Below, in pieces: positions 8,226-63,222 of a stretch of 64,000 bases of DNA. Where the stretch lies: IMG/VR virus record IMGVR_UViG_3300024180_000005, positions 16,219 to 80,218 of that record; one strand, 5' to 3'. The stretch's first letter is position 1. Every line of letters begins with the position of its first letter. The stretch is from a virus. Position numbers and translations under genes: made by a program. A model generated the notes under the pieces. That model had not been told where the DNA came from. It worked only from the letters and a program-made list of their open reading frames with translations, and did not search any database.

Positions 8226-9005
8226 ATGATACTTAGATACGAACAACTTAATGAAAATAAGATGTGGTACAAAACAATACCACAGATATTAGAATGGATA
8301 GATTCAAAATCTGACCTTTATTGGATTTGGATAGACACAGAAACAACTGGCATAGGAGGTCCGAAAAAAGAACAACTTACACAAGTTTCCGCAATAGTTA
8401 CTAACTACAACTTCAATAATAATTCATTCAATGAGGTTGATACTTTTGATAGAAAGATCAAACTAACATCGGATATAAAATCTAGATATGATATACCTGG
8501 TGATAATAGTAGAAGAATTTTAAGTTTTAATCACTATGGATCTGGCGGTTACAAATATGAAGAAGAAAGTGAAGTCGTTTATGATTTCTTCAAATGGATA
8601 GAAGATTATTCACCTTGTTTAGGTATTGCACAAAATGCGAGTTTTGATATGAATATGTTAGCAGGTAGATCCGATAATAAAATAAAATTTGAAGTATTCG
8701 ATACTAAGATGTTGATTCAATTATATTATTTACCACTTTTACAAAAACTGGGAGAAACTGACTCTAAATATTCAGAAATTGTAAGTTCTATAGGAACTTC
8801 AACAAGAGATAATGGATTGATTTCTTCTTCTATGGCGAAGATTGGTCCGGCACTTGGTCTAAGTATGGATAACTATCATGATGCGATTACAGATTGTAGA
8901 ATCACTATTGAGATGTATAGAAAGATTGTTGATTTTTTAAAAGAGAATAAACATATCGATATAAGCAAATATCAAAACGATAGAATCAGAACAATAAGAA
9001 AATGA
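8226..9005 (+). CDS. DEDDh (DnaQ-like) 3'-5' exonuclease with N-terminal tag-like peptide
   Basis: IDTETTG, NASFD, HDAITD; begins MILRYEQLNE. Confidence 0.85.
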   Translation: MILRYEQLNENKMWYKTIPQILEWIDSKSDLYWIWIDTETTGIGGPKKEQLTQVSAIVTNYNFNNNSFNEVDTFDRKIKLTSDIKSRYDIPGDNSRRILSFNHYGSGGYKYEEESEVVYDFFKWIEDYSPCLGIAQNASFDMNMLAGRSDNKIKFEVFDTKMLIQLYYLPLLQKLGETDSKYSEIVSSIGTSTRDNGLISSSMAKIGPALGLSMDNYHDAITDCRITIEMYRKIVDFLKENKHIDISKYQNDRIRTIRK

Positions 9006-9064
9006 AATACCTAAGATATAATGATGCTAGAGAAACTTTGATAGACAAGAAGTACAAAACTTAA
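9002..9064 (+). pseudogene. 20-codon stub starting with the MKYL tag
   Basis: ATGA overlap with upstream gene; MKYLRYNDARETLIDKKYKT* then terminator. Confidence 0.45.
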
Positions 9065-9070
9065 TATCAT

Positions 9071-9105
9071 AAATAAAGCCGGTCGAGTGACCGGCTTTAT
9101 TTTTT
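9071..9105. terminator. bidirectional intrinsic terminator
   Basis: AAATAAAGCCGGTC-GAGT-GACCGGCTTTATTTTT. Confidence 0.85.
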
Positions 9106-9170
9106 CGTTTATACTAATCAGAAACCATCTTCAAGAGTCAGTAAATATCTCTTTTCTTTACGTTCATAGT

Positions 9171-9485
9171 TTAGTAAAAAATATATTTTTCATCTTCTTT
9201 GATACAATAGATTGAGATTGGGTAGATTCTCAACTCATCATTACTTTCATCCACTATAAACCTCATAGAACCATCTATGATATCTGTGTTTACAATTTTA
9301 ATTGTTGCGTGATGTAATCCTTTCAGAACTGAATAGGTGATGTCGTCTAATTCTTCAGTAAGAACCATATAGTTATCCTTTCCTTGTATCTTACCGGATA
9401 ATCCATCGATAAAGTAAGCCTTTTCTATAATCTCTCTAAGTGAATCTGTTGCAGAACACTCTACTTTAATTTCATGTTTTACCAT
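9171..9485 (-). CDS. hypothetical protein
   Basis: 104-aa ORF with AAAC-N17-TATAA element upstream. Confidence 0.75.
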   Translation of the reverse strand: MVKHEIKVECSATDSLREIIEKAYFIDGLSGKIQGKDNYMVLTEELDDITYSVLKGLHHATIKIVNTDIIDGSMRFIVDESNDELRIYPISIYCIKEDEKYIFY

Positions 9486-9549
9486 TTCTTTTTATTTAGT
9501 TATTAAAAAATTTTATTTGAAATATTTATATTGATAAAATATATAAAGT

Positions 9550-9759
9550 TTAATTATGATAAACAATATTTATAGACGTTATATCTTCAATAGTAAAATT
9601 TACTATCTCTTTGAATAGTTCAAAACCTGTAAGACTCTCATAGTCATTTTGATTTTTGTTTATCTTTTTTATGATTGGGATAAGAGAATTTATCTGTTTG
9701 TGTGTAACCTCAATCTTTTCGCGACTATCTTCTGTATCTATTACTAAAAAACCTCTCAT
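9550..9759 (-). CDS. hypothetical protein
   Basis: 69-aa ORF, ATG start, co-oriented with neighbours. Confidence 0.6.
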   Translation of the reverse strand: MRGFLVIDTEDSREKIEVTHKQINSLIPIIKKINKNQNDYESLTGFELFKEIVNFTIEDITSINIVYHN

Positions 9760-9795
9760 ATAAGTTCTTATTTTTTCTTATATATAAGTTTTTTC

Positions 9796-14057: not shown

Positions 14058-14348
14058 ATGAAGATATTAAGATTTGAAGATTTTGAAATGACGAATGAGG
14101 CATTACCAAGACAACAATCAGTAAATCAGTTAAAAAAAGTTATGAAGATGTCTGCTAAAACAGATATCGGAAATCGTATCTCTGATATGAACAAGCAAGG
14201 TGCTAATATACAATATATTCAAAACCCTATTGATTCGGGTATTGAGTCATATGAAGATTATGAAAAGCATAATAAAAAATTCGTTTCTTCTTGGAATTTA
14301 AAAGGTATGTTGAGTCCATTTAAAGTAAAGAAAGTTAAAGATATATAA
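14058..14348 (+). CDS. tagged hypothetical protein, first gene of tag array 1
   Basis: Starts MKILRFEDF; AATATATA-N4-ATG. Confidence 0.8.
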   Translation: MKILRFEDFEMTNEALPRQQSVNQLKKVMKMSAKTDIGNRISDMNKQGANIQYIQNPIDSGIESYEDYEKHNKKFVSSWNLKGMLSPFKVKKVKDI

Positions 14349-14362: not shown

Positions 14363-14683
14363 ATGAAATACTTAAAAAGGTTTAATGAGGCGATAAATGA
14401 AGAATATTTTTCACTGACTGATAAATATAATGAGTTGCCTGATGATATGATATTTCCAAGAACCGAAGGACATGATGAGTGGTTGAAGAATACACCAACC
14501 CATATCAAATTACTTTCGATGCTTTGTGGGTTATTAGATGCTGATTTAGTAGAAAGATTTCAACTCGATAATACTTTTTTTGTGGCTTTGAAAAATGAGT
14601 ATGAGTATACTGGATTTGAATTAACAAAAGATGAGGTTATAGAATCTTGTCATAAACTTAAAAAGGAAGGATTTTTAAAATAA
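14363..14683 (+). CDS. tagged hypothetical protein
   Basis: Starts MKYLKRFNEAINEE. Confidence 0.8.
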   Translation: MKYLKRFNEAINEEYFSLTDKYNELPDDMIFPRTEGHDEWLKNTPTHIKLLSMLCGLLDADLVERFQLDNTFFVALKNEYEYTGFELTKDEVIESCHKLKKEGFLK

Positions 14684-14686: not shown

Positions 14687-15214
14687 ATGAAGAACATAAA
14701 GACATATGAAGGATTTTTTGACTTCTTTAAAAAGAAGAAGTCTGAAGACGACCAGATTGGAGAAGACTATCTAAAAAGACTTAAGAATTTAAAATCCTTT
14801 TTAGAAAAAGGAGGTGTATCTCCATATGAGATTGTTTCTAAACACGACATTGATGAGGATAGTAAATATCTTAGATATACTTTAACATTTGACGACGGTG
14901 CCATAAGAATTTGTAAGGTAGAGGCCGATAAAAAATATAGACAAGGATGGAATCTACAAACACAGAAAGAATTCATCGAACGAGGGTGTGTAAAGAAGAA
15001 CAATCATGTTCTTTATTTACTTGATATCAAAAGAGTAGAAGAATGTCTTTTAGCAGACTGGACTATATTGGAAGATATTTTCGAAATGGCAGAATGGTGC
15101 TTCAACAAAAACCAGAAAAACATTAGAATAAACAAGATAAAAGGTGATATGAACCCATCAGCGGATCTATTAGATGATGATATTTGGGGTGATACTCCTT
15201 TAGACAGAAGGTAA
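14687..15214 (+). CDS. tagged hypothetical protein
   Basis: Starts MKNIKTYEGF. Confidence 0.8.
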   Translation: MKNIKTYEGFFDFFKKKKSEDDQIGEDYLKRLKNLKSFLEKGGVSPYEIVSKHDIDEDSKYLRYTLTFDDGAIRICKVEADKKYRQGWNLQTQKEFIERGCVKKNNHVLYLLDIKRVEECLLADWTILEDIFEMAEWCFNKNQKNIRINKIKGDMNPSADLLDDDIWGDTPLDRR

Positions 15215-15217: not shown

Positions 15218-16126
15218 ATGAAATACTTAAAACTATACGAACAATTTAGACTTATCTTGGAAAAATTAGATAGTCAAGGAAAAAAATTATTTTTACTATG
15301 TGGACCAAGTGCTACTGGTAAAACTTATTTAGCTGGTCAAATCGGAATTGAACACTGGACGAAATCAACAGATTTTAAAGGTAATTGTCTAATTACAACT
15401 GATGGTGAAGATGGTGAACAAGAAAAAATTACTGAGTTATTGGAAGCAAAAGGTTGTCCTAAGTTAGCAGAGATATCAAAATCTGATATAAACAATATTG
15501 GTGGAGTTTTTATGATTGCTTATGTAGGTGATGGTGTAGATAAAAAATGGTTTGACCAGTGGAAGAATGAAGCTGATGAAGAAGAAAAGAGTATTCTAAA
15601 TCCATTATTTGAGATTCTTACTAAAGAAAATACTTTTTGTCCACAAACGATTACACAACAAGATAGTAGAGTTTTAAAACTAGCACTAATTTCTTATTTA
15701 TGGGGACCTGGTACAATTTTATTTGATGATGTTAGACCAACAATCACTAAGTTTTATGATGACATAACAGAGTATATTATTTATACACCGATTACTACTT
15801 ATTTAAGTGATAATCTAGTGAAGAGAACTTCTGGTGAACCTGATATGAATATAAAAGGTAAGATTGAAAAGTTTTTTGAATGGTTTCAATTATCAGAAAC
15901 TCCTGATACTTCATTTCCTGATGATAAAAAATACACATTGGACGAGATTGAAGAATCTATGGAAACAATAAAAACAAAAATAACTATTGAAGATTTTATC
16001 ACTATTTCTAAAATAACTGATAAAATGAAAGAAGATGGTTTCTACTTTAAAAAGGGTGGAATTCAAGGAGATAAAGATAAAAGTCCTGTGTTTAATTCAA
16101 GAGGTGGTGATAGTTTATCACTATAA
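15218..16126 (+). CDS. tagged P-loop NTPase/kinase-like protein
   Basis: Starts MKYLKLYEQFRLILE; Walker A GPSATGKT; ILFDD. Confidence 0.75.
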   Translation: MKYLKLYEQFRLILEKLDSQGKKLFLLCGPSATGKTYLAGQIGIEHWTKSTDFKGNCLITTDGEDGEQEKITELLEAKGCPKLAEISKSDINNIGGVFMIAYVGDGVDKKWFDQWKNEADEEEKSILNPLFEILTKENTFCPQTITQQDSRVLKLALISYLWGPGTILFDDVRPTITKFYDDITEYIIYTPITTYLSDNLVKRTSGEPDMNIKGKIEKFFEWFQLSETPDTSFPDDKKYTLDEIEESMETIKTKITIEDFITISKITDKMKEDGFYFKKGGIQGDKDKSPVFNSRGGDSLSL

Positions 16127-16144: not shown

Positions 16145-16432
16145 ATGAGATATTTAAAAACATTTGAAAACTACAATGATAAGACTTTGGCAAGGGAGAT
16201 TGCAGAAGACTTACTACCAAGATTACAAAAAATCAGAGATGAAAAAGGAATCTTTACTGCAAGTATGTTTGATAACTACATGGAAGAAAGAAAAGGTGAT
16301 CTTAAGTTAACTGATGAAGTTATGGCAGAACTTGTTGATTTGGGATTCCAATTCGATTATGATGATTCGGAAGATGAAGACTTTGACGATGATTTAGATG
16401 CAGATTCAATATTTAATTATAACTTAAATTGA
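16145..16432 (+). CDS. tagged acidic hypothetical protein
   Basis: Starts MRYLKTFEN; AATATATA-N4-ATG. Confidence 0.8.
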   Translation: MRYLKTFENYNDKTLAREIAEDLLPRLQKIRDEKGIFTASMFDNYMEERKGDLKLTDEVMAELVDLGFQFDYDDSEDEDFDDDLDADSIFNYNLN

Positions 16433-16496
16433 ATATTAAAAAAATAAATAAATAATATGAAATTACCTATATTATTAAACCATAAATGAAATACTT

Positions 16497-16526
16497 AAAA
16501 AAAGACTCATTTTGAGTCTTTTTTTT
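16497..16526. terminator. bidirectional terminator preceded by an empty tag stub (ATG 16486, MKYLKKDSF*)
   Basis: AAAAAAAGACTCA-TTT-TGAGTCTTTTTTTT. Confidence 0.8.
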
Positions 16527-21831: not shown

Positions 21832-23769
21832 ATGGCTAAAATTTCAAAATATGTTAAGTTAGATAGAGATATATTATTAGAATATATCTATAATGATGGT
21901 AACATGATTAGTGACCAGTATAAAATACTGGTTGACTCAAGAGATAACAGAAGATCGTATATAGCAGGAGACTTAAGTGGTACAGGTAATACAAATATTA
22001 AAGGTCAAGAGAATCAACTTTTTAAGTTAGATTCTGTTTCTGGAAAATATGGTATCGTAAACCCAGATTATTACTCATATCTTCAGTATAAAGAATTTTC
22101 TTCTAGTATTCCTGTTAGACATGATACTATTAAAGTTCATATACCAATAAATTGGACTTTTGGTGAACACTTAGGTTTCTATATCAGAGTTTATACTTTA
22201 GATGAGACCAATACAAACCCATTTGAGATTTCCAATTTCTATTTTGATATGACAAATGTTTCTCAGCAATATTTGTTAAACTATTCTACACCACCTTTAT
22301 TATTTCAAGAAAAACTTTGGGGAAAAACTATAGAAATAGAGGTTCCGGCTATAAATGAAATCGCAACTCAAAAAGTTGATGGTAGTCCAAAAGAAGATAG
22401 TATAAATTACAACCTTACAAATGGTATCGGTTTGAGTATAACTGCACCAATTTTTATCGACTTTTTCTTCATTGATGGTATACAAAAAGTTAATGGTATA
22501 TCAACATACATACTTGCAGGAAAAGTAACAACTACAATCCCACAAACTCCAGAATTTGAAAGATTAGGTCTTGTTGTAAAACACTCGACGGAAGGGGACT
22601 TTTTTGAAATTCACGGAACCTATAATGATAATATTGCAGAATTCAAAAAGTTCATAGATGATTCATTTACTATGGGACATAGATACTATGTACAATATAA
22701 CATAACAACATATGAACAAAATATTCGTGGGAAAACAACAACTGTAACTGTTCATGATGGTTTTAATGAAACAATAGAATATAGACCAATTATAAAATTT
22801 TCTACTACAACCGCAATAATAGATGTTGAGATGAGACTTATCGATTCTGTTGATGATTCGTATATTCTAAGGAGAGCATCATATGGTATGTTACAAGATG
22901 AAGTTTCTAAATATAGTACAAATATGTTAAAAATAAATTTAACAAATGCCACAAAGCCTAAAATCTATAATGTTAAAAATGCAATTGATGCATCTTTACT
23001 AGGTGTTACTAACGCAATGGGTAGGACTACAACACCAAGAGGTAGAACAAATAATATGGCATCAAGTGGTGCAGGATTCAATGTTGGTATAGCAGTAAAT
23101 AAAGGTGACTTAGGAAGTGGAAATAGTTTTGGTGCAGGTGTTGGTAATAATGGTGGTGTATTTGGTGGTAATTCTAATACTACACAAGTACAAACAATAA
23201 AGGTTCCTTATCCAGTCCTTGTAGATAAATTTAACATAATAGGTAAATCAGAAAATTCTGTTTTTAATAATAATACCTTCTATGGAAATGCAAAAATGCA
23301 AATAAAGATATACCCATTTGATAATATAATTAAATTTATAATTGCATCGGGTGATCCATTGAAGCCAGACTATTTAGATATGACAGGTTTAGGTGAGATA
23401 AAACTTGTTTTTAAAAATGATAACACAACACAGGAGTTTCCATTGATGATAGAATCAAGTGATATAAATCTTAAATTAGGACAAATTGTGTTTAAATTAC
23501 CACAAAGTAAAGTTTTAAGTGTTAAAAAGATATATGAATCAGGTGTAAATATATTTTATATAACATCATTTAATCAGGGAAATACTTCTGTAGTTTATAC
23601 TGGATTATATCAAATATTTGATAATCTTAAAAATGTTTCAGATCTTAATAAAGATTCTGTGGTAGTTGGTAATTCGGCTATAAATCAAGATCCTAAATTA
23701 CCTAGAGAAACCGCAGTGGTTACTAGAAAATTAATAACAAGTGAAACGGCACCTACTAAAAAGGGTTAG
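21832..23769 (+). CDS. putative virion structural protein
   Basis: 645-aa beta-rich ORF after TATATATA, Gly/Asn linker, upstream of a tail gene. Confidence 0.6.
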   Translation: MAKISKYVKLDRDILLEYIYNDGNMISDQYKILVDSRDNRRSYIAGDLSGTGNTNIKGQENQLFKLDSVSGKYGIVNPDYYSYLQYKEFSSSIPVRHDTIKVHIPINWTFGEHLGFYIRVYTLDETNTNPFEISNFYFDMTNVSQQYLLNYSTPPLLFQEKLWGKTIEIEVPAINEIATQKVDGSPKEDSINYNLTNGIGLSITAPIFIDFFFIDGIQKVNGISTYILAGKVTTTIPQTPEFERLGLVVKHSTEGDFFEIHGTYNDNIAEFKKFIDDSFTMGHRYYVQYNITTYEQNIRGKTTTVTVHDGFNETIEYRPIIKFSTTTAIIDVEMRLIDSVDDSYILRRASYGMLQDEVSKYSTNMLKINLTNATKPKIYNVKNAIDASLLGVTNAMGRTTTPRGRTNNMASSGAGFNVGIAVNKGDLGSGNSFGAGVGNNGGVFGGNSNTTQVQTIKVPYPVLVDKFNIIGKSENSVFNNNTFYGNAKMQIKIYPFDNIIKFIIASGDPLKPDYLDMTGLGEIKLVFKNDNTTQEFPLMIESSDINLKLGQIVFKLPQSKVLSVKKIYESGVNIFYITSFNQGNTSVVYTGLYQIFDNLKNVSDLNKDSVVVGNSAINQDPKLPRETAVVTRKLITSETAPTKKG

Positions 23770-24437: not shown

Positions 24438-24594
24438 TCTTATTATAAAGTTTATCAATAGAGTTCTTTCTTTTCCAAGATTTTGAAGAAGCCATATTCT
24501 GAATATTTTTTATTATATCAGCATCTATGTTCTTTGCGAGTTCTTCAGAAAGAATCTTCAGAAGTTCATCTTCTACGTTTATGTTATCTTTCAT
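24421..24594 (-). CDS. small protein (57 aa) with major-capsid spine-helix-like segment; absent from ORF track
   Basis: MKDNINVEDELLKILSEELAKNIDADIIKNIQ..KRKNSIDKLY; ATGA overlap with the upstream acetyltransferase. Confidence 0.65.
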   Translation of the reverse strand: MKDNINVEDELLKILSEELAKNIDADIIKNIQNMASSKSWKRKNSIDKLYNKIKDVE

Positions 24595-25115
24595 ATTAAA
24601 TTAAATCTACTAAATAAATCATCAAAATTAGATGAACATAAAAGAGGTGATATTTCATTAATTATTTGTTCATCCATATACCACCACTTTAGTTTTAATA
24701 AATTACTTATTATTTCATCACCAAAACGATATTTAATAACTTTTGCCGGATTACCACCAACTATTGAATATGAGGGAACATCTTTAACAACATGTGAATT
24801 ATTTGCTATAACTGAACCATCACCAATTTTAACACCACTCATTATAGTTGTGTTGGTTCCTATCCAAACATCATTACCTATTATAACATCACCATTAGTT
24901 TTAGGATGGCCTTGTCCATTAAATCTATCAAATGTTCCTAACTCAACATGACCAAAAGGATATGTAGTTACCCAATCAGTTCTATGGTTACCACCTAAAA
25001 ATACTTTTATATTACCACCAATAGAACAAAATGATCCAATATGTAATTGAGAACCTTCTCCCCAAGAAAATAAATTAATGTTATTATGTCCATATGTATA
25101 TCTACCAACTTTCAT
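24591..25115 (-). CDS. CatB/Vat-related hexapeptide O-acetyltransferase
   Basis: IGSFCSIG, NHRTDWVTTYPF, IGNDVWIG, VKIGDGSVI, IVGGNPAKVIKYRF. Confidence 0.92.
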   Translation of the reverse strand: MKVGRYTYGHNNINLFSWGEGSQLHIGSFCSIGGNIKVFLGGNHRTDWVTTYPFGHVELGTFDRFNGQGHPKTNGDVIIGNDVWIGTNTTIMSGVKIGDGSVIANNSHVVKDVPSYSIVGGNPAKVIKYRFGDEIISNLLKLKWWYMDEQIINEISPLLCSSNFDDLFSRFNLI

Positions 25116-25209
25116 TATTTTATTTTTGAGTACTTTGGATTCAGACTATTTAATAGATTAGTTATTGCAACTATTAATAATTAGTGGTATAATTGTGACT
25201 ACTCAAATT

Positions 25210-25791
25210 TTATTTTCTTTTTAATACAGTTAAACCGTTATTATTTTCATATTTTTCATATATTAACCATTTACTACCATTTTCTGTTTCTAAGAAATCT
25301 AAAACCGCATTCCATAATCCGTTTTTATTTGTAGATTTATTCTTAATATCATCACTCGCATGTTCATATATTTCTTCATCAACTAAACCAAATGATGTTG
25401 TATCATGTAAAATTATATATTTTGATGACTTATTTGAGTGCAAATTCAATTCTTGTATTAATTGGTTATAGGTATGTAAAGTATCAATAAATAATAAATC
25501 TGTTTTTTCTATTTCAATATTCAAAACATCAGATTCTATAAAAGTATAATCAATGCCATATTTATTTGCAATTTCAACCACATCATTTATTTTTTGGTTT
25601 TTTACAATATCATAGCTAATCATTTTTTTTGGATTGGACATCAACAAAGGCCAAGTTGATGAAACCCATCTAACTCCCATCTCAGTTATATGATCACATT
25701 CTTTACCATATTTTAATAAAGTAGGTAAATGTTCATTGATATCAGATGAAATATTACACTGTTCTTTATAAATTAATTCTATTTCTTTCAT
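25210..25791 (-). CDS. class I SAM-dependent methyltransferase (Methyltransf_24-like)
   Basis: SDINEHL, EMGVR, DLLFIDTLHTY, IILHDT, NNGLTVL. Confidence 0.8.
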   Translation of the reverse strand: MKEIELIYKEQCNISSDINEHLPTLLKYGKECDHITEMGVRWVSSTWPLLMSNPKKMISYDIVKNQKINDVVEIANKYGIDYTFIESDVLNIEIEKTDLLFIDTLHTYNQLIQELNLHSNKSSKYIILHDTTSFGLVDEEIYEHASDDIKNKSTNKNGLWNAVLDFLETENGSKWLIYEKYENNNGLTVLKRK

Positions 25792-25869
25792 TTTAATATT
25801 ATATTTTTTATTTATTGGTTGTGTTTACTCAATATTTACTATCTTTATAAGATAGTTTAATGGTAAAGT

Positions 25870-26634
25870 TTACGATAATAATTTAAAGTTTTTATACTTT
25901 TCCATTATTTTATTATATAGATTCTCATCTAAACTTATATTTTTTAAATCTGACCATTTTTCTATTATTAAAATAGGGTATTCTTTATAGTAAGAAATAT
26001 TTATACTATTCGTGACGACTGGAATCGATTTAAAGTATATAGACTCCCAAGTCTTATGACAATCTATACCATTACCATTTGGTGATATAACAAAATAACT
26101 TTTAGATATCTCACGTAAGTAGGACTCAAAATCAACTCTTTCTGAATTTTTAATTGGATATATACTATTTAAACATGTTGTTCTTTCATTCATATTAGTA
26201 TTAATATCTATATTACAATATACGTTATTTACTTTTTTATTATTTTCTATCATTACCTTTTTTATAATATCGGTATTACCGTGTGGCCACCTAATATTCG
26301 CAATTCCAATTGGAATAGAAAATAATTTATAATGTAAAAAGTTAATATTCTGACCATACCATTTTAGTAAATAATCATTATTCATTATTGATAAATAACT
26401 ATCATTTATAGAAAGATCACTATTATGTGTATATAATATAAATTTATTTTTAATATTTGGAAGAATAATTGATTTAAAATCATTTAACATATCTGTTTTA
26501 ACAAATATCTTCATCCCATCAAATTGATTAACTTTATTAATATCAAATTGATAAAACTCATCGTATATAAAATCACATTTCTTTCTATATCCCATCCCAG
26601 TTATAAAAGGAAGTGAATCTTTTGTTAAATCCAT
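25870..26634 (-). CDS. exostosin/GT47-like glycosyltransferase
   Basis: THNSD, IPIGI, FVISPNGNGIDCHKTWESIY..IPVV. Confidence 0.75.
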   Translation of the reverse strand: MDLTKDSLPFITGMGYRKKCDFIYDEFYQFDINKVNQFDGMKIFVKTDMLNDFKSIILPNIKNKFILYTHNSDLSINDSYLSIMNNDYLLKWYGQNINFLHYKLFSIPIGIANIRWPHGNTDIIKKVMIENNKKVNNVYCNIDINTNMNERTTCLNSIYPIKNSERVDFESYLREISKSYFVISPNGNGIDCHKTWESIYFKSIPVVTNSINISYYKEYPILIIEKWSDLKNISLDENLYNKIMEKYKNFKLLS

Positions 26635-27344
26635 AGGTTATTAATCATTTTATCTATTTCCAATTTATATTGTGAATATGGTCTAAGTGAGTGACAATCT
26701 ATATAATATCCCTTTTTTAAGGTATCAATATCATAAACCCAATTAGATCTATCAATCCTATTCATAGCCATACCATATTTCCAACCTCTCTCAGTTAGAT
26801 ATATTTTATCTCTATAATTAAACTCATTAACACATTTACCGAAATAAAGTTCATCAGTATCCCATCCCTGTTCAAACTTTGACAACCTATCACAATATTC
26901 ACCAAATTCACATTTTAAATCCAAAACATCGTTAAATATCTGACCTTTGCCAACATTATAGCATAACGGATATCTAGTTGTGTTATAAGCATCTGAACTT
27001 AATATAGCCAAACTATCATCATTTAGTTCATTAACTATATTATTAAAATAATAATGACTGAGAGGTAGCATATCTATATCGGATGTTATACAAACATCAT
27101 CTAGGTAATATTTTGTTATATACATTCTAACAATTTGTGACTGAAAGGCTGTTGAATAACCATCAACTGATTTTACTTCATGTATTATATGGTCGTCATT
27201 ATCGGTAACTAAATCCTTATCAGATATTAAAACTAATATAGGTTTTATTTTAATTAATTTAATCCAAAGATCCCTAACAATTGGCCAGAAATCCAAATAC
27301 ATAGGATTACTATCAGAAGCTACTATCGCGTAATCAATTTTCAT
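26625..27344 (-). CDS. putative glycosyltransferase
   Basis: DxD in SDIDMLP, WDTDE, IDCH; cluster context. Confidence 0.55.
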   Translation of the reverse strand: MKIDYAIVASDSNPMYLDFWPIVRDLWIKLIKIKPILVLISDKDLVTDNDDHIIHEVKSVDGYSTAFQSQIVRMYITKYYLDDVCITSDIDMLPLSHYYFNNIVNELNDDSLAILSSDAYNTTRYPLCYNVGKGQIFNDVLDLKCEFGEYCDRLSKFEQGWDTDELYFGKCVNEFNYRDKIYLTERGWKYGMAMNRIDRSNWVYDIDTLKKGYYIDCHSLRPYSQYKLEIDKMINNLWI

Positions 27345-27353
27345 TTATATGTA

Positions 27354-28016
27354 TTAAGTTTTTAATTTTTTTAATTTATTTTCTAATTCATTCATTATTC
27401 TAACATCACCAGTTCTATCACCAATAGTTTTACATCTAAAATGAAAATAATCAAAAATATTATCCGGGACCGGAGTATTTTTTATATCCAACCTTTTAGA
27501 AAAAGTTGGATAAATTCCAATATCTCTTAATAAACAAGCAAGTGCTACATCATCTATAAACTGATGATTCCATTTATTTCTATTTTCTACTACTTTTTCA
27601 ACTAAATCTTTGGATATAAAATATCCACAACCACTAGCGAAATTTATATCACCATGATTACCTATAATACCGTTATAAAACTCATTAAAAGGTTTATCAT
27701 CTAAATAGTCAACTAACTTCTCAATATTAACATAACTGCTACTATTGGTCCTAAAGATATAATCAAAATTATTACCTTTTAATAAAATCTCAAAAGCTCT
27801 AATAGTTTTATACCCTATATTATTATAACCTTCCGGATAGTTTGTTATTATTTTATCTTCATAAATGTACTCATCTTGCCCACCATGGTAAAAAAATACT
27901 TTTACATTATCTAGATTATGATTTGCCCAAGTTTTTTTTATACAATTCTCCAACATAACATAAGGTTCTTGATAATGACTCAATACCAATATTATTACAT
28001 TTTTTCTATTTGACAT
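27354..28016 (-). CDS. GT31-like (galactosyltransferase fold) glycosyltransferase
   Basis: IKKTW, YKTIRAF, YIFRTNSSSY, FASGCGY.IS.D, DDVALA. Confidence 0.65.
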   Translation of the reverse strand: MSNRKNVIILVLSHYQEPYVMLENCIKKTWANHNLDNVKVFFYHGGQDEYIYEDKIITNYPEGYNNIGYKTIRAFEILLKGNNFDYIFRTNSSSYVNIEKLVDYLDDKPFNEFYNGIIGNHGDINFASGCGYFISKDLVEKVVENRNKWNHQFIDDVALACLLRDIGIYPTFSKRLDIKNTPVPDNIFDYFHFRCKTIGDRTGDVRIMNELENKLKKLKT

Positions 28017-28020
28017 TATC

Positions 28021-42855: not shown

Positions 42856-43488
42856 TTATAACTTTAATATTTTGTTTTGTTCCTTACCCAATATTTCGAA
42901 TCTCTTCCAGTATCCAGAGCTTATAGACTCTTTGTCTAGTCCTGTATAATATACGGTACCACCAATATCTACTTTAATTATCTTTGGCACATCAAAGTTT
43001 TTGACGTTTTTGTATTTTTCACAAAGTTTTAAATCCGATAATTGTTCGATATAATTGAAAACATGACGATCAAATGAAGATTTCATTCTTTCCAATCTTC
43101 TAAGTTCTTCACCAAGCTCGAATTTTCTTTTGTTATTTAAGATAAAGTCTATCTTTTCTTCTCTACACTTTACAATATCCTTTGAAAAAGTAACTCTATC
43201 TGTTGAGTAGGACCATCCAAAATTGTCGTCTTTTCTTATAGAGTATTTACAAGTGATTCCATCTCTATCAAAGAAGACATGAATTTCACCGCTTTCCATT
43301 GGTTCAACTTCATTTATTATCTTATTCATAAATTCAGAAAATTCTTGTCTTCTTTTAAGTGATCTTTCTTCAACACGAAGATATAGGTCATGTATATCTT
43401 TTAAAGTCCATTCTTTTGGATCTCTGTTGAATTTTAATTTAAACTCATATTCTTTCAAGAAATTTACTCCAAGATTTTTATTATACAT
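42856..43488 (-). CDS. hypothetical protein with internal REEKIDFIL motif
   Basis: 210-aa ORF in operon. Confidence 0.75.
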   Translation of the reverse strand: MYNKNLGVNFLKEYEFKLKFNRDPKEWTLKDIHDLYLRVEERSLKRRQEFSEFMNKIINEVEPMESGEIHVFFDRDGITCKYSIRKDDNFGWSYSTDRVTFSKDIVKCREEKIDFILNNKRKFELGEELRRLERMKSSFDRHVFNYIEQLSDLKLCEKYKNVKNFDVPKIIKVDIGGTVYYTGLDKESISSGYWKRFEILGKEQNKILKL

Positions 43489-43491
43489 ATT

Positions 43492-43734
43492 TTATTTTTT
43501 TAAAGTCTCATCAATTCTTATATCTCTTTCAATCACTTCTTTATTTTGTTTGTACCAAATTCTAAAGTCACATCCATAATATATGAGCTCTTTTATAGTT
43601 CTACCATCTTCTTCGTATTCAGCACTACATGTTTGACCAATCATGAATCTATTAAAACTTTCTTTCCAGATATCCGGAATTTCAGATTCTCTAATATCTC
43701 TACATTCTTCGTATATTTCTTTTAAATTTTTCAT
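43492..43734 (-). CDS. hypothetical protein with C-terminal RDIRIDETL motif
   Basis: 80-aa ORF, ATGA coupling. Confidence 0.7.
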   Translation of the reverse strand: MKNLKEIYEECRDIRESEIPDIWKESFNRFMIGQTCSAEYEEDGRTIKELIYYGCDFRIWYKQNKEVIERDIRIDETLKK

Positions 43735-49211: not shown

Positions 49212-49790
49212 ATGAAATTTATAAGAACGTTTAATGATAGACATAATGTTGATTCTGTATCATATGCTGATATTTCGGAATATATTAGAGAAGAGATTCA
49301 ATTGGGTATTGTTAAACCATTTAATATTGAACATAGTTTATATAAATCGGGTGATTATATATGTTCATCATTTAAAATAAATGATAGAGATGTTGTAGTT
49401 TCATCTATTGTTATAGATAATTCTGAAACGCATTGTGTTGGTTGTGGTCAAAATTATAAAACTTTATCGGATTGTATAAATCAATATGGTATAAAATCAA
49501 ATGAGTATTTAGTTATAGGATTTGGTGAATATTTGGAAGGATTTTATAATGATGATAGTACATTTTTTCGAAAAATGGCAACTATAGTCGAAATTATAAA
49601 ATCTATGGTTTTATATCATAATTTGAATTATATAATTTTTAATTCTGTTGAGAATGTTGATTATAAAAGGAGAGATAAATTTTATGAACTTTTTTTATCA
49701 TATAATAATATTGAAAATTATAAGATTAAATCAAAAATAGATATTGGTGGTGAGATATTATCTGATTTTTATTTTTTAAAGGTTTCATAG
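49212..49790 (+). CDS. tagged hypothetical protein
   Basis: Starts MKFIRTFND; GATATATA-N4-ATG. Confidence 0.7.
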   Translation: MKFIRTFNDRHNVDSVSYADISEYIREEIQLGIVKPFNIEHSLYKSGDYICSSFKINDRDVVVSSIVIDNSETHCVGCGQNYKTLSDCINQYGIKSNEYLVIGFGEYLEGFYNDDSTFFRKMATIVEIIKSMVLYHNLNYIIFNSVENVDYKRRDKFYELFLSYNNIENYKIKSKIDIGGEILSDFYFLKVS

Positions 49791-57440: not shown

Positions 57441-58676
57441 ATGAAAAGGATGTCTAATGAATATTTTATAATTAAATCAAAGGAAATATGGGGTGATAAG
57501 TATGACTACTCACTCGTTGAGTATAAAAACATGAAGACTAAAATAAAAATAATCTATAATGATTGGATTTTCTTACAAAAGGCAGAGGATCACTTATTAG
57601 GTAAGATGTGTGAATTGAGATGGAACACTGATCGTTTTATTTTTGAATCCAAAAAAATACATGGTGATAATTATGACTATAGTAAGAGCGTTTTTAAAAA
57701 CATGAATACAAAAGTAATTTTGTTAAAAAATGGGGTTGAGTATTTACAAAGACCAGATAAGCATTTACAGGGTAAAAAGCCAGAAAGAGTTAGAAGACTT
57801 AGAAGTAATAATGATTTTATAGATGAGGCTAGATCAATTTGGGGATATAAATATGATTATTCATTAGTTGATTATAAAGGATCACATAAAGAAGTTTTGA
57901 TTAAACATGATGATATAATTTATAGACAAAAACCTGTTCAACATTTGCTTGGTTATAATTGTGAAAGAGATACTATAAAAAATCAAGAAGACTTTTTGAG
58001 AAAATGTTATGAAAAACATGGTACTAAATATGATTATTCGTTGGTTGAATATACGGGAAGTCAGAATAAAGTCAAAATAATATTTGAGGGGAAAGTATAT
58101 GAACAAAAAGCAGGTGCACACATTCATTCATCCGGATTGGTTGAAAGAGTAATATTAAAAAAGACAACAAAACAATTTATAAAAGAGGCAAATGAAATAC
58201 ATAATTTTAGATATGATTATTCAAAAGTAAAATATTTAAACAATCAGACAAAAGTAATAATATTTTGTAAAATACATGGTGAATTTGAACAGGTATCATC
58301 ATCACATTTGAGTGGAGCAGGTTGTCCACATTGTTCTGAGTCCAAAGGTGAAAAAAAAATCTCTAAGTTTTTAGATCTTAATGAGATTGAATATGATAGA
58401 CAAAAGAAATTTGATGGTTGTATTGGTATAAGATATAAACTACCTTTTGATTTCTATCTACCTAAATATAGAACTGCTATAGAGTTTGATGGTAAGCAAC
58501 ATTATGAGCCTATTGAATATTTCGGTGGCTTAGAAGCATACAATCGATTGAAAGTAAATGACAAGATAAAGTCTGACTATTGTGAGGACAACTATATTGA
58601 TTTGATAAGAATCAGATATGACCAGATTGATAGAGTGTTTGAAATATTGAAAGAGAGTTTAAAGAATAAGATTTAA
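57441..58676 (+). CDS. homing endonuclease with KYDYSxVxY (DUF723-like) repeats and Vsr/DUF559-like nuclease
   Basis: Five (H/W)GxxYDYS-type repeats; GCPHC.ESKGE..PFDFYLP..IEFDG.QH..D.IK..YC..LIRI.Y. Confidence 0.85.
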   Translation: MKRMSNEYFIIKSKEIWGDKYDYSLVEYKNMKTKIKIIYNDWIFLQKAEDHLLGKMCELRWNTDRFIFESKKIHGDNYDYSKSVFKNMNTKVILLKNGVEYLQRPDKHLQGKKPERVRRLRSNNDFIDEARSIWGYKYDYSLVDYKGSHKEVLIKHDDIIYRQKPVQHLLGYNCERDTIKNQEDFLRKCYEKHGTKYDYSLVEYTGSQNKVKIIFEGKVYEQKAGAHIHSSGLVERVILKKTTKQFIKEANEIHNFRYDYSKVKYLNNQTKVIIFCKIHGEFEQVSSSHLSGAGCPHCSESKGEKKISKFLDLNEIEYDRQKKFDGCIGIRYKLPFDFYLPKYRTAIEFDGKQHYEPIEYFGGLEAYNRLKVNDKIKSDYCEDNYIDLIRIRYDQIDRVFEILKESLKNKI

Positions 58677-59329
58677 CTTTCCTTCAAAAGACCTAATTTA
58701 ATTTGATCTATCCTATCTTTCTCCATCCACTGGAGCTCACTATATTTCGGATATATAAAACCAGAATTATTATTATTATAGAGTCTTAAAGGTAAGTCGT
58801 CTGAATCGATAAGATCTAATACTTTTTTGACATCTTCTTTTGATACGGATATTCTTCTGGTTCTGTTTCCTAAATGGAAGACACTCTTTGTGGAACCTGA
58901 TCTCCCTCGCAGACTTTTTCCGATCCAAAGATTTTTTTCTTGTCCGCTTTCTAGGTTTCCGGAAACATAAAATCCTCCGGTAGGATCATTCCAATTGAAG
59001 CTTGTTATTGTACCTAAATAGAATTTATGTTTAACACCATCCATTTCTATATCAATCGAATGTTCTCCTAAAGTAGGCTTTATCTCTACTTCGAAGCTGG
59101 CGTTACCTGTAAGTTCGTTAAAGTATGTTTTTGATCTTAAGACTTTTTGTTCGTCGCTCAATTTCGCCAACATCTCTTCGAACCAGCTAGATATATCAGA
59201 GTGGACGAACTGTCCTTTGTATTTTCCTTTAAGAATAAGTCCTTCTTCTTCGACTTCGAAGCCATTATCAGTGAAGTCGTATGTGTAGTCGCTTGACCAG
59301 TCTTCGTTTATCTTCTTGATTCTTTTCAT
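58673..59329 (-). CDS. tagged hypothetical protein, last gene of tag array 2
   Basis: Starts MKRIKKINED. Confidence 0.8.
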   Translation of the reverse strand: MKRIKKINEDWSSDYTYDFTDNGFEVEEEGLILKGKYKGQFVHSDISSWFEEMLAKLSDEQKVLRSKTYFNELTGNASFEVEIKPTLGEHSIDIEMDGVKHKFYLGTITSFNWNDPTGGFYVSGNLESGQEKNLWIGKSLRGRSGSTKSVFHLGNRTRRISVSKEDVKKVLDLIDSDDLPLRLYNNNNSGFIYPKYSELQWMEKDRIDQIKLGLLKES

Positions 59330-59331: not shown

Positions 59332-59775
59332 TTACTTCTTTATTTCGATTACAAAGTAGTCTTTACCTTGTATTTGATCTATTAAAGGTTGATGTAGTGC
59401 AGTTACTACCAAATAATCTGGATATTCATCCTTTAACTTTTCTATATTTGAACCGAGTTCATCTAAAAAATAAGCGAATGTTTTGTTATACTCTACAAAT
59501 TTAGAAAAATCACCTTTGAAACCATAATTTGGTGTATGTTTGATATCCAACTGAGGACAGTTTATGAATATAAATACGTTTGTAACATTTTCTGAAGTGA
59601 CTTCACTATCTTCTATCTGATTCATTGCACCAATATCTGATACTTTATTCCAATATGTTATCTCACCAACTTCTTTATCAGCTTCGATCATGTCAATAAA
59701 GCAGAATTTGATATATTCGATATCCAATCCTTCTTCTATGCTTTCGTTAAACTTCTTCAGATGTTTCATTTTCAT
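59332..59775 (-). CDS. tagged hypothetical protein
   Basis: (MK)MKHLKKFNESIEEGLDIEYI. Confidence 0.8.
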   Translation of the reverse strand: MKMKHLKKFNESIEEGLDIEYIKFCFIDMIEADKEVGEITYWNKVSDIGAMNQIEDSEVTSENVTNVFIFINCPQLDIKHTPNYGFKGDFSKFVEYNKTFAYFLDELGSNIEKLKDEYPDYLVVTALHQPLIDQIQGKDYFVIEIKK

Positions 59776-60181
59776 TTATTTATTTTTATATACTTATATC
59801 TAATACTATGCACCTTTGGTAGGTCTTCATGTCTCCTTCTTGTAGCTCACAGTGGAAGGCTATCTTGTAGCTTGGGTATTCGTCTCTCAGCCTGGAAATG
59901 GCAGATCTTAGATTTTTAGAGAACTCGTCGACCTTTTCTATTCCGGCGAAATACTCTTCCTCGCTTTCTATGTCCATGTTGATAACAGGTTCATAGCAAT
60001 AGAAAGTGCACTCTGTCTTTCCTCTGCCATCTATCTCCACCTCTTCAGCTTCATCCCAGACCATAGTGTCTATCTCTCCCGCAGCACTATCGTCTTCTAT
60101 AAGCTCTATGAAGCATTGTCTTATGTACTCGATATCCAATACTTCTTCTATACTTTCGTTAAACTTCTTCAGATGTTTCAT
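59717..60181 (-). repeat. 53-bp direct repeat (59717-59769 and 60129-60181) covering the tag-coding DNA
   Basis: 51 of 53 positions identical by manual alignment. Confidence 0.9.
59786..60181 (-). CDS. tagged hypothetical protein, paralog of 59332..59775
   Basis: Start moved to 60181: MKHLKKFNESIEEVLDIEYI; shared L.DEYP.Y. Confidence 0.8.
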   Translation of the reverse strand: MKHLKKFNESIEEVLDIEYIRQCFIELIEDDSAAGEIDTMVWDEAEEVEIDGRGKTECTFYCYEPVINMDIESEEEYFAGIEKVDEFSKNLRSAISRLRDEYPSYKIAFHCELQEGDMKTYQRCIVLDISI

Positions 60182-60344
60182 CTTCTTCTCCTTCTTCGTT
60201 TTCTTCTTCCCACTCTTTTTGCATTCTTTCCTTCTCCTCCTTTTCATCAAGATAGTTAGGTAGAATTATTTCTACAGGAGTTTCACTATTCCATTTGTTT
60301 GCAAACTTCTTTGGAAAGTTTTTATATGTTTCTAAATATTTCAT
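60159..60344 (-). CDS. tagged small acidic protein
   Basis: Start moved to 60344 (TAATG overlap): MKYLETYKNF.. Confidence 0.65.
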   Translation of the reverse strand: MKYLETYKNFPKKFANKWNSETPVEIILPNYLDEKEEKERMQKEWEEENEEGEEDETSEEV

Positions 60345-61066
60345 TATCTTTTTACTAATTTTAGTACTACTTGCTGGTCTCCACCGCTTATATTGAACTT
60401 CAGTCCGTCTTCCCAAGCTTCGTTTCTAATCTCAATCAGAACTCTTCTTCTTTCATTGTCGGTATTGTCTAAGTTCATTGTTCCTCGTCCTACCTTGATT
60501 AGTGTGTCAGATATCCCGTAAGAGTAATCGTTCTTTTTTGCAAATCTTGCATCAAGCCAGTTTCCTTTTAAAGTAACTCTTTTGTGTCCCATAGATTTTA
60601 ACCAATCTTGTACTCTTGTCAGATATCCGTCTATCTTATCCACCATAGATTCTTCTTGTTTAGCGAAACCACCCATTATGATGAAAGTTATGGTAAGGCC
60701 TTTGTAATCCATTCCTATGTTGAAGTTTATATCTTTTTCTTCACTTAGGTCGTAGAATCTTTCTATCTCATTTATAACTTCTTTTATCTTCTCGAAAGAA
60801 GTCAGACATTTTTCCATTCCTATATTTATACCATCTAGCTTTCCTAAAGAAAGGGTAACCATTTTGGCTTTTCTGTATTTACTAACATCTTTCATATAAG
60901 GAGTTACATCCTTAACGTGGTTATCAACTATAACCACATTCTTTATAGTTAAAGAATCTGGATTTTCATCAGTATAGTCAGTAAATAACTGTCTAATATC
61001 TAAATCGGTATGTTCATCAAACTCTCTGACTTCTTGGCTTTCTATGAATCTTCTTAGGTATTTCAT
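60344..61066 (-). CDS. tagged hypothetical protein
   Basis: Start moved to 61066: MKYLRRFIES; junction TAA-G-ATG. Confidence 0.8.
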   Translation of the reverse strand: MKYLRRFIESQEVREFDEHTDLDIRQLFTDYTDENPDSLTIKNVVIVDNHVKDVTPYMKDVSKYRKAKMVTLSLGKLDGINIGMEKCLTSFEKIKEVINEIERFYDLSEEKDINFNIGMDYKGLTITFIIMGGFAKQEESMVDKIDGYLTRVQDWLKSMGHKRVTLKGNWLDARFAKKNDYSYGISDTLIKVGRGTMNLDNTDNERRRVLIEIRNEAWEDGLKFNISGGDQQVVLKLVKR

Positions 61067-61067
61067 C

Positions 61068-61388
61068 TTATCTAAATTTATTTGGATATATAGTCCTCCA
61101 TTCATGTCCCTGTGGAACGTCCGATGCCCTAACTCCAAAAACTTTCTTTTCTGGACTGGTGTCTTTGCCATCCATTAAGAAGTTGTTGTTACTCGCCCAA
61201 ACCTCCATAGTTCTATTGATTGGTTGTCCGTCAGAAAATGGAAATCGGATTCCCGTTTTATTATCTATTTTAGAAATTCTTCTATCTGGAGAAATAGAAA
61301 CGGTTATCACAAGTTTAGGATTTCTCTTACTTGTGAAAACTATTTCATGTTTACCAAATTCTTCGTTGAATTTCTTTAGATGTTTCAT
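61068..61388 (-). CDS. tagged hypothetical protein
   Basis: Start moved to 61388: MKHLKKFNEE; junction TAA-G-ATG. Confidence 0.8.
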   Translation of the reverse strand: MKHLKKFNEEFGKHEIVFTSKRNPKLVITVSISPDRRISKIDNKTGIRFPFSDGQPINRTMEVWASNNNFLMDGKDTSPEKKVFGVRASDVPQGHEWRTIYPNKFR

Positions 61389-61389
61389 C

Positions 61390-61821
61390 TTATTTGAAGT
61401 CACTGAATTTTCTCAATCCTTCGAATTGAGCTTGATCCATAGATTCATCTTCTAAACCTTCTTCAGATTCTTCAGATTCTAAATCTTCTAAACCTTCTTC
61501 AGAATCTAAATCTTCTAAACCTTCTTCAGAATCTTGTGCATTATGGAAATCAGCCAATACCTCAGTTATTTTAGCTTTAAGTTCTTCTGGATCACAATCT
61601 TCACCACACTCTTCAATAGTCGCAAGAACTCTGTTTACAACTTCTTCAAGTTCTAAACTTTCTTCTTCTTCAGTTTCTTCACCACCAAATGCTTGTGCGT
61701 CTTGTGCGTCTTGTGCGTCTTGATCAGCAAAGATTTCATCATTTTTCATTTGATCTGCTTCTTCATCTGCGAAAAAGTTATCAGCAAAGTATTCGAATTT
61801 TTTAAGATTTTTCATAATCAT
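61390..61821 (-). CDS. highly acidic tagged protein, prohead-core/scaffold-like
   Basis: MKNLKKFE.. at N-terminus, LRKFSDF at C-terminus; three EEGLED repeats and DAQ x3 (9-bp repeat near 61692-61720). Confidence 0.75.
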   Translation of the reverse strand: MIMKNLKKFEYFADNFFADEEADQMKNDEIFADQDAQDAQDAQAFGGEETEEEESLELEEVVNRVLATIEECGEDCDPEELKAKITEVLADFHNAQDSEEGLEDLDSEEGLEDLESEESEEGLEDESMDQAQFEGLRKFSDFK

Positions 61822-61926
61822 AATAAGTTTTTTTTTGTTTTTTATATAGTATATATTAAGTTATAAAACCAAAAAAAATGTCACCTTTTGAGTGACATTT
61901 ATGATTATTTTTATAATATTCTTTAT

Positions 61927-63222
61927 TTATAAGAATTTCTTATTTGAGATGTTTGGTTTAATACCCATTGAGTCTTGGTATTTTCCCCAATTAAGTATAG
62001 ACTCTGTTTTACTAGCCAATTTATTGGATATTTTTGAATGTAACTTGTTTGTTTTTGTGTCCTTTGCCATACTGAATAGTTTAGATATTTTCTTTAATAA
62101 CTTCTTAGATTCAAATTTAAACATTTTTTCCTTATTAGAGAAATAATAATCACTATTTTTTATATCTTTTTTAAGATTTTTCAAGAAATTTTGAAAAAAA
62201 TCATTTTTTATATCTAAATCTGGATCTTCTTCGGCTTTCTTACCAGTTAAAAGTTCTAAAAATGGATCACTATCATATTTAGGATCTCTTAATAATCCAG
62301 AAAGTGAATCTAATTTTGACCCAATTATATTATTTAAAATTAAATCTTTTAGAGTTTCAATAACTTCTTCATCTGATTGATTATCTACTCGTATATCACT
62401 AGATTCTAATCTATCTCTTATTGAATCAATACTTTCTAAAAGTTTGTCATCAAACTTCTGATAAGTCCATTCCGACATTTCTTTTAAAATTTTCCATGTT
62501 TTATTATTAGTTATAAAATTTAAAAAGTCATCTTTAGTTACACCCTGTACTTCCATTCTAGACGCAATCTCTGCGGATCTAACAATAGATTCTGTTTTTG
62601 ATATGAAGTATAAGTAATAAAAAAATTCATCCACTGCGGGTATTCCAAATCTTAATTTACTTATTGCACTATATTTAGCAACATCTTCGAAATCTTTACC
62701 ACCTTTTATAAAAGATAAATCATAAGAGTGCATTAGTTCGTGTCCTAATGTTGAAACTACTTGTGCCTTATTACTTAATAAAATATCCTTAACCGATTTT
62801 GTCCAAAAATCCTTTTTAGTACTCCTTGACCAAGGGAAATCAAATTTTATACCTAAATTTATTTTACCATCACTAAGATATTCGATATGAAAGTTTTTTC
62901 TATCAATTTTAGTGTTTGGGTTAAAGTATGCACCAATAATCCCAGCATTATTACTATCTTTTCTGTTTACTTCATCGATAAGTATTTTAATATTAAATTC
63001 ATTTATCTCAAAATCATTTATTTTACCGGATAGTGCTAAGTCGAAACTTAACTCTATTTCATTCGCATCAACAGTATATTTATCGCTAACTTCTCTGTTA
63101 AATAAAATGTTTTTCATACCCAATCTTTCTATTATAGAATCATATAGTTTTTGTGCCAAATCGGTTATACCGGTTGGGACACCAACTGCCTCATTTAAAT
63201 CAAATCTTTTTAAATACTTCAT
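61927..63222 (-). CDS. tagged zincin-like (HExxH) protein
   Basis: Starts MKYLKRFDLNEA; LGHELMHSYD with downstream Y....E. Confidence 0.75.
   Translation of the reverse strand: MKYLKRFDLNEAVGVPTGITDLAQKLYDSIIERLGMKNILFNREVSDKYTVDANEIELSFDLALSGKINDFEINEFNIKILIDEVNRKDSNNAGIIGAYFNPNTKIDRKNFHIEYLSDGKINLGIKFDFPWSRSTKKDFWTKSVKDILLSNKAQVVSTLGHELMHSYDLSFIKGGKDFEDVAKYSAISKLRFGIPAVDEFFYYLYFISKTESIVRSAEIASRMEVQGVTKDDFLNFITNNKTWKILKEMSEWTYQKFDDKLLESIDSIRDRLESSDIRVDNQSDEEVIETLKDLILNNIIGSKLDSLSGLLRDPKYDSDPFLELLTGKKAEEDPDLDIKNDFFQNFLKNLKKDIKNSDYYFSNKEKMFKFESKKLLKKISKLFSMAKDTKTNKLHSKISNKLASKTESILNWGKYQDSMGIKPNISNKKFL

Follow-up and report, generated by a model that had tools for sequence, protein, structure and literature searches.

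A short N-terminal tag shared by unrelated proteins of marine megaphages: a candidate T4-like capsid-targeting sequence

Roughly one gene in five on a fragment of an uncultured marine virus begins with the same 8–11 amino acids. The stretch in which we describe this shared N-terminal tag (64,000 nt, herein referred to as the window) comprises bases 16219–80218 of an 80.2-kb virus contig, IMG/VR record IMGVR_UViG_3300024180_000005. We hypothesize that this tag is a detachable short peptide that either is kin to the capsid-targeting sequence (CTS) of phage T4 or has converged on it, and that it would load the attached protein into the phage head and then be clipped off; judging from sequence comparison, we give this reading a probability of about one half. 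With the UvsX proteins of two uncultured huge phages, LR756502.1 (642 kb) and LR745206.1 (635 kb), that of the contig (G+C ~28%) shares 72% and 70% identity, respectively, with lower identity to LR756504.1 (53%), LR756501.1 (735 kb; 46%), LR756500.1 (36%) and Lak phages (31%). The stretch is present in seawater metagenomes, parts of an array of tagged genes occurring in seawater DNA runs and in six RNA-labelled runs. The window is therefore a fragment of a marine megaphage.

In the mechanism that we envisage, tagged genes would be transcribed together with head genes from a phage-specific promoter class marked by AATATATA, many of them probably as near-leaderless mRNAs. The amphipathic tag (hydrophobic at positions 4 and 7, with a basic face) would bind the prohead scaffolding core such that the attached protein becomes enclosed, and a prohead protease of the gp21 type would clip the tag after its Glu (between E and S in [FY]-N-E-S and [IL]-F-E-S, or after the E of [FY]-I-x-E), leaving mature proteins that would be retained there and delivered to the host along with the DNA. 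The phages of this clade are uncultured, and we infer the binding to the core, the cleavage, the retention in the head and the injection. A broader proposal, which we put forward more tentatively, is that throughout a clade of 300–735-kb phages, lineage-specific variants of a T4-like CTS may load 60–170 fast-turnover accessory proteins per genome for co-injection, and that leaderless promoter, start codon and tag together may form a gene-capture cassette that makes new genes virion cargo.

A preliminary description of this DNA had listed 17 tagged N-termini, every one of which we recovered at its position and with its peptide. Fifteen of the 17 form a single class, which we call type A (M-K-[YH]-[LI]-[KR]-x-[FY]-[NE]-E; 10–22 bits on a position matrix); the other two are the gene at 39402, whose MIEKYNEFILE represents a second, T4-like class (type B), and the gene at 8226, whose MILRYEQLNEN is a degenerate tag with its ...QLNEN ending kept in the LR756502.1 orthologue. 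A Glu at position 8–11 is near-universal, the gene at 49212 having Asp instead. Four more tagged genes lie in the 16 kb upstream of the window (window coordinates -14023, -12574, -11254 and -5022). The strict pattern M[KR].[LI][KRE].[FY] is found at nine first-ATG starts and at four downstream Met residues that are likely the true starts, i.e. 13 occurrences, whereas within-protein shuffles contain 0.13 on average and never more than 2; across all six frames of the window, it follows 16 of 3103 ATGs.

What is conserved is the peptide and not its coding sequence. Synonymous codons are mixed at every conserved tag position (TTA, CTA, CTT and TTG for Leu, AAA and AAG for Lys, CAC and CAT for His, TTT and TTC for Phe), and the G+C content of third codon positions (GC3) is 0.24 in tag codons, compared to 0.21 for the corresponding codons of genes without a tag and 0.23 for gene bodies, such that the tags show no extra AT bias. 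Given this free choice among synonymous codons, and with GC3 no lower than elsewhere, selection must act on the peptide, and conservation at the nucleotide level only, which the preliminary description had named as a reason to abandon its proposal, does not hold.

These data bear directly on the alternative that late near-leaderless mRNAs use the tag or its codons as an expression element (acting on initiation, early elongation or protein stability), shared by way of a promoter-plus-start cassette. The association with a promoter is indeed strong: in LR756502.1, 63 of the 125 tagged genes have AATATATA in the 60 nt before their start, versus 137 of the 858 untagged genes (p=4e-16), and close boxes, ending 0–9 nt before the ATG, precede 54 of the former and 69 of the latter. 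Within the window, the claim that tagged genes belong to units headed by an ATATATA element stands for 7 of the 17 tags, in which [AG]ATATATA ends exactly 4 nt before the ATG; others are internal to arrays in which the element precedes the first gene. AT-rich genomes, furthermore, commonly have Lys at position 2 and AT-rich codons where genes begin. Yet an expression element is hard to reconcile with the free codon variation and unlowered GC3, about half of the tagged genes are array-internal and have no box, many genes with a box at 4 nt are untagged (for example 38598, 45364, 57441, 18369 and 5664–7157), and across clades whose UvsX proteins are only 36–72% identical, positions 4 and 7 stay hydrophobic and a Glu persists at 8–11. 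The codon evidence and the untagged genes with the same promoter arrangement thus weaken this explanation, which we regard as quite unlikely.

Promoter type also serves as a proxy for timing. In LR756502.1, the same AATATATA box is found 20–30 nt ahead of the genes for portal, protease and capsid protein, and a host-type TAnnTTTG box precedes only 3 of the 125 tagged versus 92 of the 858 other genes (p=0.002). By this proxy, host-type, early-like promoters are depleted on tagged genes, which speaks against the tag being equally common on early genes. Two further observations concern these promoters. TAnnTTTG, of the Bacteroidota -7 box type, forms a second promoter-like class that serves another set of genes than the AATATATA box (examples lie upstream of 63299 and, on the minus strand, of 54041, 48462, 45267, 43988, 37960, 37399 and 1370), and its sequence suggests a class of early genes read by the host polymerase. 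Many genes, tagged and untagged alike (38598, 45364, 57441, 18369, 7157 on the minus strand and others), have an [AT]ATATATA whose end is exactly 4 nt from their ATG, a spacing that implies mRNAs that are probably leaderless or nearly so.

The tag behaves as a portable label, as had been proposed, in that unrelated folds carry it and homologues occur both with and without it. We grouped 146 tagged proteins into 113 BLAST clusters, in which 101 of the 146 bodies are singletons; among the window proteins, BLASTP at E<1e-3 links only those at 59769 and 60181, in agreement with the earlier statement that the bodies are non-homologous except for one pair. Tag-bearing folds include a rhodanese, a P-loop protein and a DEDDh exonuclease in the window, and lysozyme, SET, HNH and GNAT domains in LR756502.1. 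The tagged LR756502.1 gene 493761 matches the untagged gene at window coordinate -6516, tagged gene 221232 matches untagged gene 530608, and homologues of the rhodanese share a common body from around residue 15–20 that is preceded by a type-A tag, an MKKFxQFINE-like tag, some other extension or nothing. Conservation ends after ~10–14 residues and known domains begin at around residues 15–38. Consistent with this, residues 1–11 of the rhodanese AlphaFold2 model are coil with a predicted local distance difference test score (pLDDT) of 63, versus ~90 for the rest, and the model of the 39402 protein has an N-terminal helix (residues 2–13) with pLDDT <50 despite the invariant Y5 and F8. As modelled, a tag that is conserved yet unpacked is the signature of a short binding motif.

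It follows from the same comparisons how little can be said for the notion that all tagged proteins are one diverged paralogous family with the shared N-terminus as part of a common fold. LR756502.1 does have a BLAST cluster of 18 tagged paralogues along with several small clusters, and the arrays suggest duplication; however, clearly different folds are tagged, most bodies are singletons, homologous bodies come with and without the tag, and the tag stands outside the fold in both AlphaFold2 models. As a general explanation, a single family is contradicted.

The tagged proteins are small (median ~150 aa) and hydrophilic (median grand average of hydropathy -0.52); more than 90% are without a Pfam family, and Pfam and PHROGs scans left most tagged bodies without explanation. 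A Sec, Tat or lipoprotein signal peptide was considered and ruled out: such a peptide would have some 10–20 residues of hydrophobic core behind a basic N-region, whereas acidic or polar residues (N-E-S, F-E-S) follow the tag and the bodies are hydrophilic. A possible third tag, M-[KR]-I-x-[KR]-[IV]-[AS], seen on many rhodanese homologues, was likewise set aside, with 0–2 matches in each of five reference megaphages, and tblastn of the rhodanese against named phages returned no useful relative.

The tag is not confined to this contig, and whereas the preliminary description was right that it is real, the local system of about 17 proteins that it envisaged was too small: the tag is clade-wide and found on 7–17% of genes. 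With the window-derived matrix, 98–131 of the 983 N-termini of LR756502.1 scored as tags, versus 8 of 3804 internal Met residues in the control, and these internal matches are mostly probable true starts. De novo comparison of N-termini identified 170 of 983 genes with at least five similar N-termini in LR756502.1 (0 in shuffles), 63 of 940 genes in LR756504.1 (0 in shuffles) and 35–62 of 550 genes in the first 400 kb of LR756501.1 (0–1 in shuffles), in which the variant is M-[IV]-K-x-[FY]-x-x-[FY]-[IV]-[NK]-E-[SA] (e.g. MIKTFDEFINES). A strict DNA pattern matched 33 times in LR745206.1 and 10 times in LR756500.1, with 0 matches in each control; Lak-A2 has 0 matches to the type-A pattern (control 0), no de novo search for a variant of its own having been made. 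In IMG/VR, at least 120 stretches carry the strict nine-residue form, ten contigs of 120–508 kb have 4–19 matches each versus 0–1 in controls, and the loci that we fetched hold 286 strong tags in 1.06 Mb.

The tagged repertoire is nearly wholly different between this contig and LR756502.1, and this turnover is among the observations that would fit a historical origin, in which the tag is a by-product of tandem duplication or recombination at a promoter–start–tag cassette and its DNA a recombination handle for cassette swaps. Such a history would agree with the tandem arrays with their 3–18-nt spacers and overlapping ATGA junctions, with tag-only stubs at 9002 and 16486 and with second tags inside two LR756502.1 open reading frames (ORFs). 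A neutral relic would decay, however, and here the peptide is kept while codons drift and bodies diverge beyond recognition, in distant clades and in the many IMG/VR stretches alike. As an account of why the tag persists, we find this very improbable; it may explain how the tag spread but not how it is maintained, and can therefore hold alongside head loading. As a separate observation, high-scoring tags occur inside the LR756502.1 ORFs 22663–23577 (minus strand, residue 125), 42885–43721 (minus strand, residue 94) and 96696–98024 (plus strand, residue 433), which may represent fusions of adjacent genes, or polyproteins that carry a tag internally.

A link to head assembly comes from the head genes of the relatives. 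The genes of LR756502.1 include those for a Gp23 capsid protein (99 bits) and a T4-type portal (196 bits), the latter with two tagged genes directly upstream. Between the portal and capsid genes is a 699-aa ORF (225272–227371), in which a weak match to the T4 prohead protease family covers the first 140 residues and the remainder consists of 12–14 tandem 14-residue repeats, Y[ST]EY[IL]AE[NS]LDKNIx, followed by an acidic tract; the same fusion of a protease-like domain to a repetitive, scaffold-like region occurs in LR745206.1, LR756504.1 and LR756501.1. The repeat core SEYIAE resembles the QEFIAE of the T4 tag and includes an (I/L)-x-E, the motif of the T4 protease. After the protease domain, [LI]-N-E-S is conserved, as is [IM]-N-E-N at around residue 45 in the capsid proteins; tags end most often in [FY]-N-E-S. 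Hydrophobic-N-E-[SAN] occurs at 0.31 per 1000 internal residues proteome-wide and three times in the protease–scaffold ORF, a ~14-fold enrichment. By their sequence, the [LI]-N-E-S and [IM]-N-E-N sites of the protease–scaffold and capsid proteins are likely processing sites.

A short binding motif need not bind the prohead, and the tag could instead dock onto another partner (the phage's own Hsp70 system, a different part of the virion or a cytoplasmic hub), with the tagged proteins acting inside the infected cell. The basic–hydrophobic–basic core of the tag (K-Y-L-K-R-F) is similar to sequences favoured by Hsp70 proteins. The tag is conserved but unpacked, as short linear binding motifs are, the contig encodes DnaK-like and DnaJ-like proteins (by their N-terminal sequences only) and a ClpB-type ATPase, and the tagged bodies are acidic and include ordinary enzymes. 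For T4 itself, the title of a paper cited in PMC10052503 has the N-terminus of a head protein directing proteins to GroEL. The conserved acidic end of the tag (N-E-S or F-E-S) would nevertheless be unexpected in an Hsp70 site, and it matches the motifs at the likely processing sites of the protease–scaffold and capsid proteins; moreover, tag variants grade into the T4 CTS, and no partner was identified. We consider docking of this kind credible but unlikely.

The head-loading hypothesis draws its precedent from T4, whose CTS, MKTYQEFIAE, is cut once by the prohead protease (PMC5694885), and whose tag and diverse internal proteins are well known (PMC3012670, PMC5694885). The likeness that the preliminary description drew with this sequence is borne out in position, length, hydrophobic spacing and terminal Glu: our tag also sits at the extreme N-terminus, spans ~10 residues, begins with M-K, has hydrophobic or aromatic residues at positions 4 and 7–8, and has a small residue after its terminal Glu. 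It is likewise borne by unrelated, fast-changing small proteins that are often clustered, and the relatives carry T4-type portal, capsid and gp21-like protease genes (the protease match being weak). The T4 sequence has K-x-[YF]-x-x-F-I-x-E in common with the type-B forms, MIEKYNEFILE and the MIKTFDEFINES of LR756501.1; of these tags, the LR756501.1 variants, MIKTFDEFINES and MIKKYIQFINEA, come closer to MKTYQEFIAE than the 39402 tag does. Type A matches it in M-K, in being hydrophobic at 4 and 7 and in a Glu at 8–9, but is without the F-I-x-E core. With so short a peptide, likeness to the T4 CTS cannot establish homology. There are also clear differences from T4: the commonest form here is MK[HY]LK[KR][FY]NE, protease and scaffold share an ORF that contains tandem CTS-like repeats, a promoter box is found 4 nt ahead of the start codon in many tagged genes, and the system is known from its sequence alone.

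Two other known systems invite comparison. The giant phages phiKZ, 201phi2-1 and SPN3US have inner-body or ejection proteins with N-terminal propeptides that a T4-related prohead protease cuts after Glu, and the paralogues gp53 and gp54 have identical N-termini and diverged bodies (PMC5694885, PMC10052503). Their propeptides are mostly ~80–160 residues long, share no one short motif and are cleaved at (S/A/G)-x-E; in SPN3US, about eight head proteins were first reported as cleaved, and 42 head proteins are reported to be uncleaved (PMC5694885, PMC10052503). These phages resemble ours in being giant, and have dozens of head-internal proteins. A long propeptide of their type can be ruled out here, given that conservation of the tag ends after ~10–14 residues. 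In polymorphic toxins, N-terminal trafficking domains act as address labels that are folded and tied to secretion machines. The tagged genes share with them a conserved N-terminal module joined to highly variable C-terminal cargo, arrays, cassette-like turnover and remnants; they differ in that the label is a phage peptide of 9–11 residues and that no toxin domains were detected.

Several observations count against head loading. The head genes are seen only in relatives, the 80-kb contig carrying none, and the Peptidase_S77 match of the relatives (20–23 bits) falls below the Pfam cut-off of 27. LR756501.1 has the same scaffold repeats but a different form of the tag, and the repeat therefore does not explain the MK[HY]LK part of type A. 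A hydrophobic-x-E is present within the first 16 residues in only ~10 of the 17 window tags, the others having K/T-[FY]-E or, at 49212, Asp. The tagged bodies are acidic (median isoelectric point 5.1 versus 5.9 for other proteins), whereas those of T4 are basic, its internal proteins being described as highly basic, and tags on 7–17% of all genes, compared to a handful of T4 proteins, are without precedent. In the window, the AATATATA box also precedes uvsX and the gene for the small subunit of ribonucleotide reductase and hence marks a phage-specific promoter class that is not strictly late. Finally, the tagged genes are strongly tied to the near-leaderless arrangement, and some role of the tag in expression accordingly keeps a share of the probability.

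If the tag does load heads, it would provide a list of injected proteins, from sequence, for giant phages that are uncultured, as the set of co-injected proteins could be read directly from their genes. The first-strike toolkit would then be far larger than that of any studied phage, with anti-defence proteins, host-modifying enzymes and a lysozyme as its candidate contents, and the T4 CTS would be linked to the repeat unit of a protease–scaffold protein, which suggests how such tags dock; tag and protease might also serve as a protein-loading system. Whatever its role, the tag is a strongly conserved short motif on 7–17% of genes in a widespread phage clade. The T4 tag is already known, and the expanded motif was not found in the literature that we searched: a full-text search for the tag strings returned no paper with the motif, and in the marine megaphage paper the words 'N-terminal' and 'motif' are absent.

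The tagged genes of the window lie singly or in two arrays. The DEDDh exonuclease (8226–9005, plus strand, 259 aa; RNase_T, phrog_192) bears the degenerate tag; TAATATATA ends 4 nt before its ATG, and its LR756502.1 orthologue begins MVSIKRFGQLNENN. Overlapping its stop codon is the first of two tag-only stubs (9002–9064, plus strand), which reads MKYLRYNDARETLIDKKYKT up to its own stop. The plus-strand array opens with a 96-aa protein (14058–14348; MKILRFEDFE) that has a promoter box ending 4 nt before its ATG, followed by a 106-aa protein (14363–14683; MKYLKRFNEAINEE, 22.4 bits on the position matrix), a 175-aa protein (14687–15214; MKNIKTYEGF) with a body related to three tagged genes of LR756502.1, the 302-aa P-loop protein (15218–16126; MKYLKLYEQF), which has its P-loop at around residues 28–35 and weak PhoH/AAA_16 matches, and a 95-aa protein (16145–16432; MRYLKTFENY), again with a promoter box ending 4 nt before the ATG. 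The second stub (16486–16515, plus strand), MKYLKKDSF and a stop codon, runs into a hairpin and T-run terminator at the end of the array; the two stubs may be remnants of lost cargo genes.

Three tagged genes stand apart on the plus strand. The rhodanese (36011–36445, 144 aa; MKYLRFFEAK), with its Rhodanese domain at residues 38–123, and a 192-aa protein (49212–49790; MKFIRTFNDR, with the Asp noted above) both have a box ending 4 nt before the ATG, in the latter case GATATATA. The product of the type-B gene (39402–41162) is a conserved protein of 586 aa that has 549 database homologues and a weak GNAT-like domain; its tag residues Y5 and F8 are invariant. Together with the contig gene at -12574..-11273, this gene belongs to a conserved family that includes several paralogues and is matched by seven ORFs of LR756502.1; the family combines the weak GNAT-like domain with a beta-rich repeat region, and Foldseek with the 39402 model gave weak GNAT-like matches only.

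The minus-strand array is headed by a 431-aa protein (61927–63222; MKYLKRFDLNEA) with TAATATATA 21 nt upstream, and continues, on the same strand, with proteins of 141 aa (61390–61815; MKNLKKFEYF), 106 aa (61068–61388; MKHLKKFNEE) and 240 aa (60344–61066; MKYLRRFIES). Next is a short 61-aa ORF (60159–60344; MKYLETYKNF) that overlaps the start of the following gene by 23 nt and is the least certain call, then the two paralogues, of 131 aa (59786–60181; MKHLKKFNESIEEV) and 145 aa (59332–59769; MKHLKKFNESIEEG), and, as the last gene of the array, a 218-aa protein (58673–59329; MKRIKKINED).

Other genes in the window encode gp32, a UvsX/RecA-like protein, the small subunit of ribonucleotide reductase, a C5 DNA methylase, helicases, glycosyltransferases and fibre-like proteins with Laminin_G_3 domains. 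Shine-Dalgarno-like sequences are lacking and TAnnTTTG-like boxes precede some genes, from which we would infer, from these sequence signals, a host of the Bacteroidota type. A run of sugar-modifying genes on the minus strand (24591–30860) includes a hexapeptide acyltransferase, a galactosyltransferase and an RXYLT1-like protein, along with several further ORFs of similar size whose family is unassigned. The contig also carries a chaperone set, consisting of DnaK-like and DnaJ-like genes (-9368..-7476 and -348..707, assigned from their N-termini alone) and, at 30967–33084 of the window, a double AAA+ ATPase of the ClpB type (Pfam).

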